Shown: positions 55,943-64,000 of the stretch, piece by piece
How positions within the stretch are numbered: position 1 is the stretch's first letter
Layout of the letters: each line of letters begins with the position of its first letter
Assembly (NCBI GenBank): GCA_963706515.1
Contig: CAVPMW010000011.1
Span: 65,675 to 129,674, forward strand
Direction: 5' to 3'
DNA from: an uncultured Chloroflexia bacterium
Lineage (GTDB): Bacteria > Chloroflexota > Anaerolineae > Anaerolineales > UBA4823
DNA: 64,000 nt
Notes under the pieces: model-generated
What the model saw: the letters and a program-made list of their open reading frames with translations, nothing else
What the model was told of the DNA's origin: nothing
The model's database searches: none
Made by a program: the position numbers and the translations under genes

Positions 55943-56004
55943 TGCCGGCAAAGATGCTCTGAAAGTTATACGCTCAGCGGAGAGGTGGGTTCCATACCCA
56001 CGGT
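55943..56004 (+). repeat. copy 3 (tail part only) of the repeat family, at the left edge of the low-GC island
   Basis: gccggcaaagatgctctgaaagttatacgctcagcggagaggtgggttccatacccacggtg aligns with 42383-42444. The GTGGGT-TCCAT-ACCCAC hairpin mimics a T-arm. Confidence 0.75.
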
Positions 56005-56171
56005 GAGTAAAGAACCCCTAGTCGCTGAAGGCCGAAAATGTTGCTGATTTCGCAACATCTGAAAAAGGCGCAACCGGGGAGGATTTTTCACCTCTCTCGG
56101 TTCCGCTGATATTACATCTGTATCTACTCATAAGCTCGTGCATGTTTCGTAGAACAGCTTGGCTGCTGCTG

Positions 56172-56303
56172 TCATCTGTTTGTACCAGTCAGCACTTCAC
56201 TATCGGCAAGTTGGGGCTGTGACCCGCGTTGGCGAAGGCGTTTGCCTTTGAGCCATTCATCTACCAGACAGTACACGCTGATCAGATAGGTGGTAATATC
56301 CAT
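56172..56303 (-). mobile_element. N-terminal remnant (43 codons) of a DDE transposase (IS982-like / IS4-IS5 superfamily)
   Basis: MDITTYLISVYCLVDEWLKGKRLRQRGSQPQLADSEVLTGTNR*. The VYCLVDDxL...RLRQRGxxPxLxDSEVLT motif is typical of this transposase N-terminus. No catalytic domain follows. Confidence 0.6.
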
Positions 56304-56614
56304 GCGAAGACCTCTGTTCTCGAGTGTTAGCTTGGCCGCTACACTTGTATCGGTGGTCTTCTTATATTGTCAAGCTCCTAGAAAAACTTGCACATCGGGT
56401 TAATTAGGATCGAGAATTGTGTAATATATTGATACTGCAAATAATTGACTTCTGGACGTAATGGTGGCCGATACGCCTATTGATTGCCTCAGACGCCCAA
56501 AAGCTGGGTTTTAGTCCTGACACAGCGGCAATCTCCATCCGCTTGTCAAGCTCTTCAATGTTAAGGAGTTGATCGGAAATTTTGAGTTATGGATAACTAC
56601 AATATCCTCTTTCC

Positions 56615-56665
56615 TTGACAATCCTTGAATTTAGTATATACTACACGCTTAGTAGTATATACTAC
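56615..56665 (+). promoter_or_regulatory. promoter TTGACA-N16-TATACT with two palindromic operators (TAGTATATACTA; GTAGTATATACTAC) 21 bp apart
   Basis: ttgaca at 56615-56620 and tatact at 56637-56642. Operator 1 is at 56632-56643 and operator 2 at 56652-56665. The core GTATATAC fits the GntR/HutC GTnTAnAC consensus. Confidence 0.7.
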
Positions 56666-56823
56666 TTTTGTTACTTATCAATTTCAATAAACCAACTCCA
56701 TCTTGGGAGGAAATACTTGTTTCCTGATTGTTTGTTCAAGAACCTCACTCAACGATACCAACCAGTCTGAAGCTCTATAACCCCAGCTAACTAACCTCAT
56801 CAAACGTAACAGCAGAGTTTTCA

Positions 56824-57877
56824 ATGAAATCATTCAATGTTGTTTTCACTGATAAGGAAAAGGTCGAGATCATTGAAGAACCTGTCAGTCTTCCTGGGCC
56901 AGATGAAGTTTTATGCAGGGCGGAAAAATCCCTCCTCAGCATAGGCACCGAAACACTCATGTTGAGAGGTGTGGCCGATGAAGATACCAACTGGTTTGAG
57001 TACATGAATTATCCAACCTATACCGGTGATGGAATGGCGGCTACCATTACGGCTGTAGGTAAGGATATTCGTGGTTTTAGGGAAGGTGACCGGGTTGCAG
57101 TCGAAGCGAACCACAAGCAGTATTTCACCTTCAAACCTAACTCACAAGAAATACACCTTCTTCCTGACCACGTTAGTTTTGAAGAAGCATCCATCCTGAC
57201 ACTATCCTTGACGGCGCAATTGGGGGTCAGACGCGCAGAGCTGAAACTTGGTGAATCAGTCGGCGTTGTCGGTGTAGGAATTGTCGGGCAATTAGTGGTG
57301 CAGTACCTGAAAGCATCAGGGGCACGTCGAATTGTCGTCATTGATACCATTCAAAAACGGTTGGATACAGCTAAAGCTCATGGAGCGACGCACATTTTGC
57401 CCATGGATGTGAAAGCTGCATTGGAATCAGTCCGACGAATTGACTGATGCCAAGATGCTGGATGTAGTAATCGACGTTACCGGGTCGCCTTCTGTGTTAG
57501 GACCTGCCACACGGCTTCTCCATCCGTTCGGTCGTGCTATTCTTCTCGGTGATACAACAACGCCTTCGAAACAATCAGTAGGCAGCAGGATAGTGGCGAA
57601 CTCTATCGCCATCCTCGGCTCTCATTCATTTAATCATCCTCGTCACTATTCTGTTTACAGTCCGTGGGACAACAGTGAAATGGCAAGCTTATATTTCGAT
57701 TATCTTAAATTGGGGGTGATGTCAGTCAATGGACTGATAACGCACCGCTATTCGCCGATGGATGCTCCAAACATATATCAAGGATTATTATCTGACCGCT
57801 CATCACAGATTGGGATCATATTCGAATGGAATTTAATTGCGGAAGCAAAAGCCCATCCGGAACGGTTCGCTCTATAA
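56824..57877 (+). pseudogene. zinc-type (MDR) alcohol dehydrogenase-like oxidoreductase, one frameshift near 57440
   Basis: ORFs 56824..57447 and 57440..57877 are colinear. The Rossmann motif is VGVVGVGIVGQLVVQYLKASGARRIVVID, followed by LDVVIDVTGSP. Confidence 0.8.
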
Positions 57878-57888
57878 ATAGGAGCCTG

Positions 57889-59316
57889 ATGATGCAAATA
57901 AAAACATGGGGAACATCCCAGGTACTAAATCGATCCGAGATCGAAGAAATATATGGCAAGGCTTTGAGAGTTTTGAACGAAGTCGGGGTCAGGATAGAAA
58001 ACAAGTGGATGATTGATATGCTGGTGGCAAATGGCGCTGAGGTCAAAGGACCGTTTCTGGTTGCATTCCCTGAACACCTGATCGACGCAATGGTCAAAAC
58101 TGCGGTTCCATTCGATTGGGAGGGAGTTCCGGAATTATCCTTTGTAGCTGGGGCAAACCCCCAGTATTACATGGCTGCTGGCACTGACCAGGTTCGTGAG
58201 AATACGCTGGCAAGTATTGAACGCCTTACAATATTAGCTGACCGTTTAGAACACATTTCCCGGATCCACTTGATGGGAGCAGCTTCAGATGTCAACCCAG
58301 AGCTGACTCCACTCTACGCAAGAATTATAGGATGGAAATATGTAAATAACTCTGAATTCGATTGCCATGAAATCTGGCATGATGACACGATCGATTATGT
58401 ACTAGAGATGGTCGATGTATATAAGGCGGACAGCGGAGAAACGGATGATGGTAATCTACTAGATGTAGTCGTCTATATGATCTCACCGTTAAGTCTTAAA
58501 GCGATGGAAGCGGATCGATTTGAAAAGTGCCATAAAAAAGGATTTAATGTCAAAGTAGGTTCATTGTGCTCTGCAGGAGGAACAGCTCCCATTACTTTAG
58601 CTGGATCACTGGTGCAGAACCTGGCTGAGATGTTGTTCATGAATTTATTGGATCGAGTTTTTAACAATAAAAATAGGATGGTGATCGAGAATCGCATCGG
58701 TGTGATGGATATGAGGTACGCGATGTTTCCATATGGAAGACCCGAAATTGGGATTACCAATTTGGCCATGGGCAATATCGCCAGGCATCTTAAAGCAGAA
58801 TATATCTCCAATTCTTTTTCAGCTGACGCAAAACTGCCAAGCAGTGAAGCAGGGATGCAAAAATCCGTTTCTGCTATAACAGGAATTCTCGCCGGTTCGA
58901 CCACTTTCTACACTCTGGGACTGCTCTCGATTGACGAAATCATTTCAGAAGAGCAATTGGTGATTGACAATGAATTTGTGGGCTTATTAAAACGGATGGC
59001 AAGAGGATTTGAACTAAGCAATGAAACGATGGCACTCGATGTAATCAAAGAAGTTGGCCCTGGAGGCTTGTTTACTGCAACCGACCATACACGGGTAAAT
59101 TATCGCACTGAACACTGGCAGCCGGATATCTTTTCACGCGAAATGTATGGCAGTTGGGTTGCCAAAGGGAAAATGATAGATCGAGACCTGGCTGCTAAGC
59201 GGGTGCAAGAGCTTTTAGCAAAGGAACAACCAATCGGCATTTCAGAAGATACAGAAATGCGGTTGTTGTCAATTGTCGAGAGAGCGAAAAGCAAATTGGA
59301 AAGGAGAAACACTTAA
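57889..59316 (+). CDS. MttB-superfamily (trimethylamine methyltransferase-like) protein without in-frame UAG (non-Pyl type)
   Basis: ATG 57889 follows AGGAG. The N-terminus is LNRSEIEEIYGKALRVLNEVGVRIENKWMIDMLVANGAEV, with ...GSLCSAGGTAPITLAGSLVQ in the middle and C-terminal VIKEVGPGGLFTATDHTRVNYRTEHWQPDIFSREMYGSWVAKG. The 475-codon frame is uninterrupted. Confidence 0.8.
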   Translation: MMQIKTWGTSQVLNRSEIEEIYGKALRVLNEVGVRIENKWMIDMLVANGAEVKGPFLVAFPEHLIDAMVKTAVPFDWEGVPELSFVAGANPQYYMAAGTDQVRENTLASIERLTILADRLEHISRIHLMGAASDVNPELTPLYARIIGWKYVNNSEFDCHEIWHDDTIDYVLEMVDVYKADSGETDDGNLLDVVVYMISPLSLKAMEADRFEKCHKKGFNVKVGSLCSAGGTAPITLAGSLVQNLAEMLFMNLLDRVFNNKNRMVIENRIGVMDMRYAMFPYGRPEIGITNLAMGNIARHLKAEYISNSFSADAKLPSSEAGMQKSVSAITGILAGSTTFYTLGLLSIDEIISEEQLVIDNEFVGLLKRMARGFELSNETMALDVIKEVGPGGLFTATDHTRVNYRTEHWQPDIFSREMYGSWVAKGKMIDRDLAAKRVQELLAKEQPIGISEDTEMRLLSIVERAKSKLERRNT

Positions 59317-60249
59317 TGAAGTACGGAATGCATTCTTGCGGACTTAAGAGCTATTCTTTATTAGAAGCTTTGAAAAAAGCAGGGGAATTTGGTTACGACG
59401 GTCTTGAAATTGATATATTTCCTCAGATAAACGATAGATTGGGCTGGGAAAAATATCGTAATGATCTGACCAACGCTGTTCCAGAAATCGCCACCGTTAA
59501 GCAAAATGCCGGAATTGAAATCAGCTCGCTTTGTCTGGGTGTTTTGTGGTTTGTAAACATTGCCGGCGATAACGAAGTAGAAAGCGACCTTGGAGTCAGC
59601 ATCATCAATGATTGTATTGAAATCGGTTCCAGGCTTGGCGCTAGCTGCTTGCTGCTGCCCATAGGCCAACCGGAAGAAGCCTCCTCGGCAAAGGCAAGGG
59701 ATAATCTATATCATTCGATCTTAAAGTGTCTCGATAGAGCTGATAAGCACAAAATCGTGTTGGCAGTTGAAAATGTCGTACAGAGAGTATTGTGGAATAG
59801 CAATGATCTGATTGAGCTGGTCGACCGCGTGGATTCACCCTGGTGCAGGGTATATTACGATGTAGGCAACCCATATTTCGTGGAGTATCAACCCGGCTGA
59901 AGAGATCTTATCGCTAAATAAAAGGATTTTCCAGTTCCATATAAAGGACATGCAAGAAGTTGTAGTTCCGCCTGTCGAAGCGAATGGCGGAAATAAAACT
60001 GAACCAGATGATAATGAAATTAAGTTCAGAGGAGACACAGCAAATTGGAAAGGGAAAAAGGATGCCAGCATTGGGACCGGGATTGTGAACTGGCCTGAAA
60101 TTATTACTGCAATTCATGATATTGGATTTGACGGTTATTTGGTTACTGAAATCCAACAGGATTTAATGCAGCCAGATTTGATCGCAAAAGAAAATTTCAC
60201 CACGCTAAAAGCGCTGGGGGAGAAAATCAAACTGAGAGGAGCACGATAA
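59316..60249 (+). pseudogene. xylose isomerase-like TIM-barrel sugar-phosphate isomerase/epimerase, one frameshift near 59895
   Basis: ORFs 59316..59900 (GYDGLEI, LAVENV, YYDVGN) and 59950..60249 (FHIKD...GFDGYLVTEI) are colinear. Confidence 0.8.
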
Positions 60250-61298
60250 TGGGAACAAGATTATTAATTACAAATCCCCGGGAAATCGGATACGGGGAAT
60301 ATGAAGACCGGATCCTGAAAAGCAATGAGGTCAGGCTGAAGACGATCTATTCCGGTATCAGCATTGGAACAGAGCTGACTGTTTATCGCGGGCTCAATCC
60401 TTATATGCTCAAAAAATGGGACAGCGAAAAGAAGCTGTTCGTAAAGGGAGAAGGGACCTCACTGAGTTACCCTACCGAATCAGGGTATGAGGCTGTCGGG
60501 CAGGTCTCAGAAATAGGTTCAGACGTTACCAAAGTAAGGGAAGGGGATTTTGTTTACGGTGGTGAATGGTATGGATGGACTCATAAAACCACGCACATTC
60601 TTACTGAAGATGCCGCCTTAAGACAAAGAATGCCAGCGCATGTGAATCCGAAACTGGGGATATTTGTCCCGCTACTGCAAACTTCATTCAATGGAATTCT
60701 AGATTCGCAGGTAAACCTTGGCGAAACCGCAGTTGTCTTTGGCGCCGGTATTGTCGGTCAGCTGGCGCTGCAATTTTTAAAACTATCCGGCGCGGAAGTG
60801 GTTGTCGTCGATTTGATCGACGAACGGCTGGAAATTGCCAAACAGCTCGGCGCGGATGAAGTCATCAACGGAATAAATATAAATGCTGGCGAATATATCA
60901 AAAGTAAAACTGGTGGGCGAGGCGCTGACGTATGCATCGAAGCGGCTGGAAATGACCTGGCTTTACACGAAGCGATCCGATGCAGCGCGTACTCAGGGAA
61001 AGTGATTTCTCTGGGCTTTAACCCTAACCCTGCGAGCCACCTAAATCTTGGCGAAGAATTCCATCACAACCGGATCAGTATTATATGCTCCCAGATCGGT
61101 GGCGTAAACCCGGCTTTGCTGAACCGGTGGGATGTGTACCGGGTGGAGGATGCCGTCGTAAAAATGCTTTACGAAGGAAAATTAAACCTGGAACCTCTCA
61201 TCACGCATGAGTTTGACTTTAGAAACGGGCAGGAAGCTTATAATTTAGCGGATAAAAACCCACAAGCTGCCTTGCAAATAATATTAAGATATTCGTAA
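60249..61298 (+). CDS. zinc-type (MDR) alcohol dehydrogenase-like oxidoreductase
   Basis: Intact 349-aa ORF. The Rossmann motif is VVFGAGIVGQLALQFLKLSGAEVVVVD, followed by ADVCIEAAGN. Confidence 0.8.
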   Translation: MGTRLLITNPREIGYGEYEDRILKSNEVRLKTIYSGISIGTELTVYRGLNPYMLKKWDSEKKLFVKGEGTSLSYPTESGYEAVGQVSEIGSDVTKVREGDFVYGGEWYGWTHKTTHILTEDAALRQRMPAHVNPKLGIFVPLLQTSFNGILDSQVNLGETAVVFGAGIVGQLALQFLKLSGAEVVVVDLIDERLEIAKQLGADEVINGININAGEYIKSKTGGRGADVCIEAAGNDLALHEAIRCSAYSGKVISLGFNPNPASHLNLGEEFHHNRISIICSQIGGVNPALLNRWDVYRVEDAVVKMLYEGKLNLEPLITHEFDFRNGQEAYNLADKNPQAALQIILRYS

Positions 61299-61318
61299 AA
61301 TTTTCTGTGACTATACAG

Positions 61319-61349
61319 AAGGCGTCACAACGAATTGTTGTGACGCCTT
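61319..61349. terminator. bidirectional stem-loop terminator between convergent operons
   Basis: aaggcgtcacaac GAAT tgttgtgacgcctt has a 13-bp stem, followed by aacttttt. Confidence 0.75.
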
Positions 61350-61369
61350 AACTTTTTAAACACCAGGAC

Positions 61370-62434
61370 CTATAAACGAACAGACGCCCCAATAGAAGAA
61401 GATTCGTAAATGGCATCGATGATTTTCATCACTTGAATTGCATCGTCGGCGGGGCAGATACACGAGATATTCTGTAGAATACAATCTACGAAATGATTGA
61501 TCTCTGTGTCCAGACATTTACCCCAATTTAAGGTGTCATCATCAAGGATGGGTTTTAGGTCGACCAGATAATCATTTTGCTCATTGAAGACCTCGAACCC
61601 GGGCTCAACTCTGGCGCCAGCCTTTTCCCCAAAAACGTCCATATATACAACCTCTTCTTTGGCTTTCATATGCATATCGAAACTCGACTCAAGAAATAAA
61701 GTGGCACCGTTATTAAATTTGACCATTGCAGTTGCCAGATCTTCAGTGTCAAATTTTCCCATCTCATAATCCGCGGTTTTGTACCAGTCGATCCCTTTAA
61801 GATTGGATCGTTTGCCAAACTTGTTGAAGGTGCTGGCAAATACATATTCTGGCTCGGGGTTGCCCATTAAATAAAGAGCTATGTCGATCATATGCACCCC
61901 CAGGTCAATCAGCGGTCCGCCTCCAGATAATTCCTTCGTTGCGAACCAGCCGCCTGGATTCCCGCATCTGCGGATGTAGCCGGTTTTAATATAATAAATC
62001 TCACCGAACGACCCTGCTTGCGAGAATTCTTTCAAGTACTGTATTTTCTCAGAGAATCTACCATTAAAACCGAACATCAGCAGTTTCCCATTCTTTTTAG
62101 CAGTATCAACCATCCGAATAGCATCTTCCGCATTCATGCCCGGTGGTTTTTCGCATAGGACGTGCTTCCCTGCATCCAGGGCTGCAATCGTAAATTCGGA
62201 GTGAGTAAAATTCGGAGTTACGATGTTTACCGCGTCGATATCCTCCCTGAGGATTAATTTCCGATAGTCATCATAAACGGTTTTGATCCCAAAATCTCTA
62301 GCTTTCTTTTCAGCATTATGTATATTCTTATCACATAATGCGATAACTTCTACCGCAGGATTGGAGGCATAGGCTTTGATATGATTGACCGCCATGCCCC
62401 CTGCACCGATAACTCCGACTCTCACTTTTTTCAT
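61370..62434 (-). CDS. Gfo/Idh/MocA-family NAD(P)-dependent oxidoreductase
   Basis: The N-terminus is MKKVRVGVIGAGGMAVNH, followed by the EKP motif (VLCEKPPG). The 354-aa ORF is intact. Confidence 0.9.
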   Translation of the reverse strand: MKKVRVGVIGAGGMAVNHIKAYASNPAVEVIALCDKNIHNAEKKARDFGIKTVYDDYRKLILREDIDAVNIVTPNFTHSEFTIAALDAGKHVLCEKPPGMNAEDAIRMVDTAKKNGKLLMFGFNGRFSEKIQYLKEFSQAGSFGEIYYIKTGYIRRCGNPGGWFATKELSGGGPLIDLGVHMIDIALYLMGNPEPEYVFASTFNKFGKRSNLKGIDWYKTADYEMGKFDTEDLATAMVKFNNGATLFLESSFDMHMKAKEEVVYMDVFGEKAGARVEPGFEVFNEQNDYLVDLKPILDDDTLNWGKCLDTEINHFVDCILQNISCICPADDAIQVMKIIDAIYESSSIGASVRL

Positions 62435-62463
62435 TTGAAAGCGTCCTTCCGGATAGCCTGTTG

Positions 62464-63808
62464 TTATTCTTGCCTGAATTTAGGCAGGTAAGCGCTCTGG
62501 GCAAGGATCAATTCGTCTGCCAGCCGCACAGCTATATCAGGCGATTGAACTGCGCCATCCAGGATTAATGCCTGAATGAATTTCTCCCGATTTCCTTCCA
62601 TTGCGGCTTCTGTGACGACCTGGGTCCAGGCAAACCGTGCTGCTACAATGCCGGCTGCTGCAGTTGGCAAGCTGGATTGCTGGATTGCATGGATTCCAAG
62701 CCCATCGGTCAAAGCAGGCGTTTCCACAATCATGCCCTCTGGAAGGTTAGGCGCCTGACCGGTGTTGGGTAAATTGGCGAAAAATACTTTCTTCTCGTTT
62801 CTCAGGATCGCTTGAATGATCTCGACGACCTGCTCTTGCTCACCACTCTGTTTATCCAAATAAGCAGCGTCATGCATATCGTCATAGATCTTGTCACCGA
62901 ACCTGATCGTTTCTTCAAAACTGAATTCATCAATCCCCAAGGTTTTTCCATAATAACTGCCGTCCCGGAATAATTGAGGGAAGAACTCTGTGACATGCCG
63001 GTCCATGGGAGCAGGGAAGGCGTCGAACCAATCCAGGCATTGCCAGCTGAATGGGTGGTCGAAAGAGGACTCAAATGGTTTACCGCAATGAGGAATGGAA
63101 GCCATCCCTGTTTTTGCCTGGTCGACTGCTAAACGAGTGTTTTCGACGACTCGGTGGGCGTGATCTTTGAGCGTCGGTTTTGCATCTCTTCCATTGGCAT
63201 AAATTTCGGAGAACCACGTCAGGTGGTTAATCCCGGCTGCGTTGAGTGATATCTCTCCGGCTTCGACCTTCAGCGTTTTGGACAGATATTGTATTGCTTC
63301 CCAGGTACCTATGCACAATCCTATAACTGATGCTCCGGTTACTTTAGTTAACAGCATAGCAGATGGGAGCCATTGGATTTGCATAGTTAAAAAATAATGA
63401 ATCAGGAGCAAGATCTATGACATCCTGAGCGATATCTACCATCGCGGGGATCATGCGTAATGCCCGAGAAGTACCGCCTGGACCAACCGAATCGCCGACC
63501 GGCATGAAAATGCCATATTTGCGCGGGATAAAGACATCCTGTTCCCAGGCACGCCTGCCTCCGACGCCGATGGTCGTAATAACTGCGGTTGCATCTCTGA
63601 GCAGTTTGCGGCGCTCCATTCCCGCGCTCAATTTAATTGAGCTATTACCGGAATGGATCATTTTTTTCGATAATTTTTTGGCAGTATCGAGTGCAATCGG
63701 ATCGATGTCGACCAAAGCAAGCTCCGCCTTGATCCCTGCTTTGATGAGATCAGAAACTACCCCGATCGTAAACATTGCACTTCCGGCTCCAATCAAGACA
63801 ATTTTCAT
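62464..63808 (-). pseudogene. glycoside hydrolase family 4 (NAD+/Mn2+-dependent glycosidase), one frameshift near 63350-63410
   Basis: ORF 63344..63808 ([13 protein letters not shown]...[11 protein letters not shown]) is colinear with ORF 62464..63411 (GLCIGTWEAIQYL...AAGINHLTWF). Confidence 0.8.
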
Positions 63809-63904
63809 GGCTTCGATTCCTTATATTTCCTCATATCGACATATTGAGGGCGTCGGCCTTTAGTAGGAATGCATTGTTGAAGCGTCTATAAAAATCAGAC
63901 AGCC

Positions 63905-63955
63905 TTGACAATCTCATTATTTAGTATATACTACTAGTTATGTAGTATATACTAC
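63905..63955 (+). promoter_or_regulatory. second copy of the TTGACA-N16-TATACT promoter with the same paired palindromic operators
   Basis: ttgaca at 63905-63910 and tatact at 63927-63932. tagtatatacta is at 63922-63933 and gtagtatatactac at 63942-63955. The spacing is identical to 56615-56665. Confidence 0.7.
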
Positions 63956-63965
63956 CTGGGTTTAT

Positions 63966-64000
63966 ATGTCAACCAATACCCCGTCGAAATCTCCTTGGAG
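63966..64000 (+). CDS. start of an unidentified gene running off the right edge (MSTNTPSKSPW...)
   Basis: ATG at 63966 lies about 30 nt downstream of the predicted -10 element. Only 11 codons are visible. Confidence 0.3.
   Translation, partial: MSTNTPSKSPW

Follow-up and report, generated by a model that had tools for sequence, protein, structure and literature searches.

This report concerns a gene of the MttB superfamily in a 64,000-nucleotide stretch of DNA from an uncultured Chloroflexia bacterium (G000:C11:65675-129674), which we call the window. The window lies on contig C11, which is 154 kb long and extends 24.5 kb past the window end. The MttB-like gene occupies an open frame on the plus strand, at 57889 to 59316, and sits in a cluster of sugar-type genes.

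An MttB-family gene without pyrrolysine in a sugar-type gene cluster

The open frame encodes 474 to 475 amino acids (aa) and has no internal stops of any kind. It therefore has no in-frame TAG, in agreement with an earlier first-pass annotation of this DNA. There are two adjacent ATG codons, at 57889 and 57892. The second is the probable start and is where the database copy of the protein (P0002, 474 aa) and homologues begin, and an AGGAG motif lies 4 to 7 nucleotides ahead of the gene start. The protein matches the PF06253 (MTTB) profile over profile positions 29 to 498 of 500, with an E value of 5.5e-55 and a score of 186.7 bits (cutoff, 25 bits). Its score against TIGR02369, the profile for pyrrolysine (Pyl)-dependent MttB, is 245 bits, below the cutoff of 525 bits. 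The AlphaFold2 (AF2) model, with a predicted local distance difference test (pLDDT) score of 96.3, has the TIM-barrel fold of MttB and MtgB, including the C-terminal dimerization extension.

The best match in both structure and sequence is Methanosarcina barkeri MttB (PDB entries 7XCL and 7XCN; PMC9842639), with a Foldseek template modeling (TM) score of 0.87 to 7XCL and a sequence score of 132 bits. Both proteins have the C-terminal dimerization loop, but only MttB has the UAG codon. MtgB of Desulfitobacterium hafniense (PDB entries 2QNE and 9YCE; PMC13080624) is, like the window protein, a non-Pyl TIM barrel of the MttB superfamily with about 475 aa. It matches with TM scores of 0.81 to 0.85 (about 490 columns) and 114 bits, and the family-wide motifs are common to both. 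The S. meliloti homologue 4yyc gave a TM score of 0.81, and the next best fold, MtmB, gave only 0.46. Against homologues of 80 to 81% identity, the ratio of nonsynonymous to synonymous substitution rates (dN/dS) is 0.09, which indicates that purifying selection acts on the gene. From the PF06253 match, the AF2 model, the Foldseek comparisons, and the tree described below, we class the product as a non-pyrrolysine MttB-family protein of a sugar-cluster clade.

The MttB-like gene is closely packed with its neighbors. Upstream on the plus strand is a gene for a Zn-dependent (MDR) dehydrogenase, here called no. 1 (56824 to 57877), split between the frames 56824 to 57447 and 57440 to 57877, both of which match PF00107 and PF08240. 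Its stop lies 11 nucleotides before the MttB-like start. Downstream, the MttB-like stop codon TAA (59314 to 59316) overlaps the ATG (59316 to 59318) of a plus-strand gene for a xylose-isomerase-like TIM barrel resembling ketose 3-epimerases. This TAATG overlap had already been noted, and a second one, at 60247 to 60251, joins the stop of the TIM-barrel gene to the start of dehydrogenase no. 2. The TIM-barrel gene (59316 to 60249) is likewise split, into 59316 to 59900 and 59950 to 60249, with PF01261 on both pieces. The nearest PDB entries to its product are D-tagatose 3-epimerase and UlaE. Dehydrogenase no. 2 (60249 to 61298, plus strand) is an intact Zn-dependent (MDR) enzyme (PF00107; E value, 3e-25) that is 85% identical to its homologue in L017, a locus with a 77%-identical cassette. 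Its best NCBIfam matches are YdjJ-like, IolM, and Tdh, all far under their cutoffs.

The MttB operon faces two convergent genes on the minus strand, as first described. One encodes a Gfo/Idh/MocA oxidoreductase (61370 to 62434; PF01408, PF22725, and PF02894) that is 79% identical to the L017 homologue and resembles levoglucosan dehydrogenase and IolG, with scores below the cutoffs. The other encodes an NAD-dependent glycosidase of family GH4 (62464 to 63808), split between 62464 to 63411 and 63344 to 63808, with PF11975 on one piece and PF02056 on the other. The GH4 of the L017 type is closest to 6-phospho-beta-glucosidases. The first-pass annotation was thus right that a Zn-dehydrogenase, a TIM barrel, and a GH4 are present, but it missed that each is split between two frames. 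A Thermotoga-type inositol pathway (IolG, IolM, and IolO) and an Amadori (frl) pathway were considered for these neighbors and were dropped because the NCBIfam scores are far below the cutoffs.

A separate clade with a rebuilt substrate pocket

A representative search returned 4,488 family members at an E value of ≤0.001, with scores that fall smoothly below about 280 bits. We built a FastTree phylogeny of 184 relatives, in which all supports are local and Shimodaira-Hasegawa-like (SH-like). The tree divides, with 100% SH-like support, into a 109-row clade that contains the window protein and a 75-row group with MtgB and each of this genome's four intact paralogues. MtgB, which is 22% identical to the window protein, therefore lies on the opposite side of the split. 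Few Chloroflexota genomes have the clade (2 of 401 sampled); it is more frequent in the second phylum sampled (24 of 401).

In MtgB, glycine betaine is bound by Y97, R312, H348, and F356. R312 binds the substrate carboxylate and is conserved in all characterized acidic-betaine enzymes (PMC13080624). In a HMMER pairwise alignment, the four residues correspond to A97, I306, Y341, and D349 of the window protein. A MAFFT alignment agrees on the R312, H348, and F356 positions; the Y97 equivalent depends on the alignment (A97 or A89), as the N-terminal region aligns differently by method. Across the clade, the R312 column holds G, W, or S, with R in only 5 of 109 members, and the F356 column is D in 94 of 109. 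D349 sits at the rim position of MtgB F356 and MttB Gly372, where the substrate meets the corrin (PMC9842639). MttB Pyl334 aligns with F310, a position that is G or F across the clade, and MttB Tyr364 aligns with Y341, which is not conserved within the clade. The clade has a signature of its own that consists of R284 (108 of 109 members and never in the outgroup), S347-x-D349-E350, E207, and W149. With its acidic and polar residues, this pocket points to a substrate that is cationic or protonated and rich in hydroxyl groups.

The remainder of the protein is conservative. It retains the family-wide residues G230/P234/T236, E247, D274, P285/E286, Q356, D360, E362, GPGG (390 to 393), H400/T401, R406, R417, and W423, which include the C-terminal dimerization loop. 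In MttB, this loop is the docking surface for MttC in the 7XCN complex (PMC9842639). The corrinoid in MttB is held by main-chain atoms, at Gly110-Thr111 and Gly372 (PMC9842639), and therefore the sequence says little on the B12 docking positions.

The first-pass annotation had allowed that the clade might already be assigned to a known quaternary-amine methyltransferase. The fully supported separate clade and the loss of the MtgB residues speak against this. Judged from the tree and the alignments, the clade can be assigned to no characterized quaternary-amine methyltransferase, and the predicted substrate is not a known betaine.

Clade genes often lie beside sugar genes

We surveyed the 35 clade loci for which DNA was at hand, namely, this locus, 10 surveyed loci, L032, L081, L082, L030, and 20 regions of the second phylum. 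These loci collapse to 21 lineages at 70% identity. Neighbors were counted within about 10 kb, and 20 canonical Chloroflexota MttB loci served as controls. A B12-binding gene was found near the clade gene in none of the 21 lineages (0 of 35 loci), against 9 of the 20 controls, so that no surveyed clade gene adjoins a corrinoid gene. GH4 genes were nearby in 9 of the 21 lineages (0 of 20 controls), URO-D-like genes in 8 (1 of 20), Gfo/Idh/MocA genes in 4 (0 of 20), TIM-barrel genes in 3 (0 of 20), and MDR dehydrogenase genes in 3 (1 of 20). Genes for sugar-type substrate-binding proteins were nearby in six lineages; for these there is no like-for-like control count, and the family model matches 3 of the 20 controls. 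Fisher tests, counted per locus and not per lineage, gave P values of 2.6e-5 for B12-binding genes, 0.002 for GH4, and 0.005 for URO-D-like genes. About one-third of the clade lineages have none of the seven scanned families nearby.

The arrangement of the neighbors is often tight. In nine loci, the gene immediately upstream of the clade member is GH4, and a URO-D-like gene directly adjoins the clade gene in L022, L029, L085 to L090, and L101. The trio of MttB, TIM barrel, and dehydrogenase is kept in two homologues of 80% identity, and the 44%-identical homologue L019 also keeps it, though in another gene order. The linkage to GH4, URO-D-like, and sugar-transporter genes recurs over many lineages of several phyla at 30 to 45% identity.

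In some second-phylum genomes, two or three MttB-like genes stand in tandem (L099:8654-11517, L097:14988-16466, and L101:11573-12997). These tandems comprise one clade member and one more divergent copy, behind a GH4 gene and beside a URO-D-like gene.

A corrinoid carrier and an activase are encoded elsewhere in the genome

The first-pass annotation saw no corrinoid gene in the 8 kb around the MttB-like gene. We found that this holds for the entire 154-kb contig, on which PF02310 (B12-binding), PF14574 (RamA), and PF00809 (pterin-binding) have zero matches. In particular, no corrinoid partner lies in the 24.5 kb beyond the window end, where one just outside the window would have been. M. barkeri MttB, in contrast, is encoded with MttC, and the MtgB gene adjoins that of its corrinoid protein.

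The machinery is present on other contigs. The genome encodes four or more small corrinoid proteins (about 220 to 255 aa; at C2:177231, C19:73337, C30:152709, and C8:24894) among nine B12-binding matches, along with RamA on C2 (at C2:293053) and pterin-binding methyltransferases on the contigs C2 and C19. Three of its six MttB-family genes stand in tandem beside a corrinoid protein on C2. The window gene is the most divergent of the six paralogues (186 bits versus 255 to 340 bits). Another paralogue (G000:C30:136274-137731) has an in-frame TAG and a TGA, and the TAG could mark a pyrrolysine-type gene or an assembly error; single TAG codons also occur inside MttB matches in several related genomes.

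We found RamA in all 28 other clade-bearing genomes checked and a small corrinoid protein (B12-binding_2; about 207 to 256 aa) in 26 of them. Often it is the sole such protein that the genome encodes, and its gene directly adjoins that for RamA. Among the 401 genomes sampled from the second phylum, RamA occurs in 24 of 24 clade-bearing genomes versus 206 of the 377 others (Fisher P = 1.3e-6, with kinship ignored). The complete Armatimonadetes chromosome G404 encodes the pair at L103:7731-10379 (G404:C1:3419730-3422378), with a RamA of 649 aa (Fer2 plus RACo) and a corrinoid protein of 208 aa. It lies between priA/fmt and a signal peptidase gene, remote from all nine MttB-like genes of that chromosome. 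An adjacent RamA and corrinoid-protein pair occurs in at least 12 other genomes of the same phylum.

A dispersed arrangement of this kind has been described. In E. limosum, MtpB, MtcB, and MtyB all use the same corrinoid protein, MtqC, which is encoded in a separate cluster; the genes for MtqA and RamQ lie in a third, and the MtyB and MtcB genes adjoin only a transporter and a regulator (PMC8604678). By analogy, the layout in the clade-bearing genomes would be that of a hub and spokes, with one carrier for many dispersed methyltransferases. The likeness is one of gene arrangement, in which the genes for MttB homologues have a transporter and a regulator beside them and are apart from those for the carrier, the tetrahydrofolate methyltransferase, and the activase. 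The E. limosum enzymes act on acidic betaines, keep the R312 equivalent, and have MFS transporter neighbors, whereas the window gene has glycosidase neighbors.

Because one carrier-activase module can serve many dispersed methyltransferases, the absence of a corrinoid gene in cis is a poor argument for corrinoid independence, and we regard it as weak evidence. Indeed, 11 of the 20 canonical Chloroflexota MttB loci likewise lack a nearby B12-binding gene. These loci and the shared MtqC of E. limosum also contradict the premise of the first-pass annotation that each MttB relative has a dedicated corrinoid protein. The corrinoid-independent role that it offered as one explanation is disfavored by the co-occurrence of the clade with RamA and small corrinoid proteins, both of which this genome encodes.

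Proposed function and alternatives

We propose, at about even confidence, that the window protein is a cobalamin-dependent demethylase of a methylated sugar-type substrate and that it is served in trans. It would act as the substrate-specific methyltransferase ("MT1") of a methyl-transfer system that depends on cobalamin. The center of the TIM barrel would bind a polar, methylated substrate, which is probably cationic or protonatable, and present its methyl group to the Co(I) of a small corrinoid protein. The gene for this protein lies elsewhere in the genome, as does that for the RamA-type activase that would keep it reduced. A second methyltransferase, of the pterin-binding or the URO-D-like kind, may then pass the methyl group on to tetrahydrofolate or some other acceptor. 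In the same pathway, a CUT1-type ABC transporter would take up a glycoside and the NAD-dependent GH4 would cleave it. The products would be handled by the Gfo/Idh/MocA enzyme, the two MDR dehydrogenases, and the ketose-3-epimerase-like TIM barrel. Because the cluster appears to import, cleave, and process a glycoside, the methyl donor is most likely a methylated sugar, cyclitol, or amino sugar, or else the aglycone; the exact compound is a guess. The first-pass suggestion of an undescribed pathway for a methylated glycoside or cyclitol thus remains the best reading, as an unproven proposal.

Plant, algal, and microbial glycans are rich in methylated sugars and cyclitols. To our knowledge, only oxygen-dependent demethylases act on them. 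We found no paper on a sugar-cluster MttB clade or on MttB together with a glycoside hydrolase and URO-D, and none on a corrinoid-based demethylation of methylated sugars. A bolder reading, which we consider rather unlikely, is that the clade, often with its URO-D-like neighbors, would provide the missing oxygen-free demethylation route for methylated carbohydrates and cyclitols. Candidate substrates would be 4-O-methyl-glucuronate, O-methyl-hexoses, pinitol-type methyl-inositols, and N-methyl amino sugars, and dispersed substrate-specific methyltransferases would plug into one housekeeping corrinoid carrier and activase. If the proposed demethylase function is true, a cobalamin route in anaerobes that degrade glycans, such as Chloroflexota and Armatimonadota, would fill the demethylation gap, and polysaccharide turnover would be linked to one-carbon (C1) metabolism, which sugar-borne methyl groups would feed. 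MttB-family chemistry would reach beyond simple methylamines and betaines. The clade, which makes up 109 of the 184 tree rows of closest relatives and is now annotated as "trimethylamine methyltransferase," would gain a function.

The URO-D-like neighbors invite comparison with the methanol and methylamine systems (MtaB/MtaC/MtaA and MtbA), in which a TIM-barrel MT1 is paired with a URO-D-family MT2. The pairs of URO-D-like and MttB-like genes in several clade lineages resemble an MtaB/MtaA-type pair minus the carrier gene. We rejected a fixed two-component MttB/URO-D system as a general rule, because the URO-D-like neighbors are not one orthologous group. A search by sequence found no PDB relatives of these neighbors.

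Several observations weigh against the proposed demethylase. The URO-D-like neighbors are very divergent (16 to 35% identical between lineages), and most have H-[ST]-D-G in place of the His-x-Cys zinc motif of MtaA, with H-C-C-G kept in the L099 and L101 proteins. The P value for RamA is overstated, in that the 20 loci from the 24 genomes amount to about 10 lineages, and RamA is common in the second phylum anyway (57%). The window protein keeps no glycine-betaine-binding residue of MtgB and has Ile in place of R312. No cobalamin or other riboswitch was found in the island that holds the cluster at an E value of ≤1. In the assembly, three neighbor genes carry frameshifts, and the pathway may therefore be nonfunctional in this copy. 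Finally, we know of no precedent in the MttB family for attack of Co(I) on an aliphatic methyl ether.

We also considered that the MttB-fold barrel was recruited for a corrinoid-independent sugar reaction, as an isomerase, lyase, or hydrolase, with the methyltransferase function gone. The constant absence of a corrinoid gene in cis, the rebuilding of the pocket with polar and acidic residues of a sugar-binding type (R284, S347, D349, E350, E207, and W149), and the tight coupling to GH4, epimerase-like, and dehydrogenase genes would all fit such a recruitment. However, among the genomes checked, every clade-bearing one has RamA and nearly all have a small corrinoid protein, genes of the URO-D-like methyltransferase family often adjoin the clade gene, and the family-wide residues and the dimerization loop are kept. 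Moreover, no PF06253 member is known to have a function besides methyl transfer. Every characterized enzyme of the MttB family, the aerobic MtgBCD system included (PMC12478193), removes N-methyl groups from trimethylamine or betaines and depends on a corrinoid. We consider the recruitment unlikely.

A second alternative starts from base composition. The whole cluster belongs to an island of 45% GC (range, 43 to 50%) in a genome of about 57% GC, which runs from window positions 56000 to 64000 on to about G000:C11:150000. The 77%-identical cassette in L017 has 46.8% GC and lies beside a flank of 59.7% GC with DnaB_C and M23-peptidase genes. Because L017 carries the same low-GC island beside a flank of about 60% GC, the cassette seems to move between high-GC hosts. 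The MttB-like gene could then be an ordinary quaternary-amine:corrinoid methyltransferase for a nonacidic amine, such as choline, that hitchhikes with sugar genes on a mobile island. The genome has five further MttB paralogues and so demethylates amines anyway, and the acidic pocket residues could bind a cation. However, the link to GH4, URO-D-like, and sugar-transporter genes in divergent lineages of several phyla is not what hitchhiking on one island would give, and the two-aromatic cation-pi motif of MtgB is not kept. In addition, the surveyed contexts show no betaine or choline transporter of the BCCT or OpuA type in their gene tables and partial annotations. An ordinary amine methyltransferase is therefore distinctly improbable in our view.

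Split frames and the remainder of the island

The proposed demethylase could be genuine as a clade function and still be out of use in this genome. As a separate chance, we considered that the cluster is a recently acquired island in decay, in which the intact MttB-like gene no longer belongs to a working pathway. Frameshift-like splits affect dehydrogenase no. 1, the TIM barrel, both GH4 genes of the island, and probably a GH127 gene and one unknown gene, in a stretch of about 20 kb. The sequence itself shows the frame change of dehydrogenase no. 1 near 57440, and a tblastn search with the L019 dehydrogenase spans 56824 to 57420. Compared with its L017 and L018 counterparts, the TIM-barrel gene carries a single additional T near 59886, and tblastn with the intact L017 homologue places the frame change at 59887 to 59897. 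This T is not in a homopolymer, which would favor decay. The frame change in GH4 (63344 to 63411) also shows in tblastn. However, both halves of the split genes are still 71 to 79% identical to intact homologues and have no additional stops, and splits also occur outside the island, in RamA (G000:C2:302573-303353), a URO-D-like gene (G000:C18:208788-209674), and one MttB paralogue. The genome looks like a long-read metagenome-assembled genome, in which assembly indels are at least as likely as decay to explain the split frames; we take decay to be a slim chance. By a crude count, overlapping same-strand frames number 2.4 per 10 kb here versus 1.7 in controls. Among the frame splits within the island are those at L015:5865-5962 and L015:8931-9010.

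Past the window end, the island continues with a CUT1-type sugar ABC transporter, a GntR/UTRA regulator, the second (split) GH4, and a GH127-like gene. It also holds another Gfo/Idh/MocA gene and, at a distance of about 10 kb from the window end, a weak URO-D-family gene (L015:10609-11730). The far end (L015:13362-19205; G000:C11:142361-148204) carries a 2-oxoacid or acetoin-type dehydrogenase set (E1alpha, E1beta, and E2), followed by two tandem GntR/FCD regulators and a Zn-dehydrogenase.

The URO-D family is greatly expanded in this genome of 4.4 Mb, which has 19 matches, four of them on contig C11 (at 33272, 35171, 36898, and 152634). Members of this family other than HemE are mostly uncharacterized.

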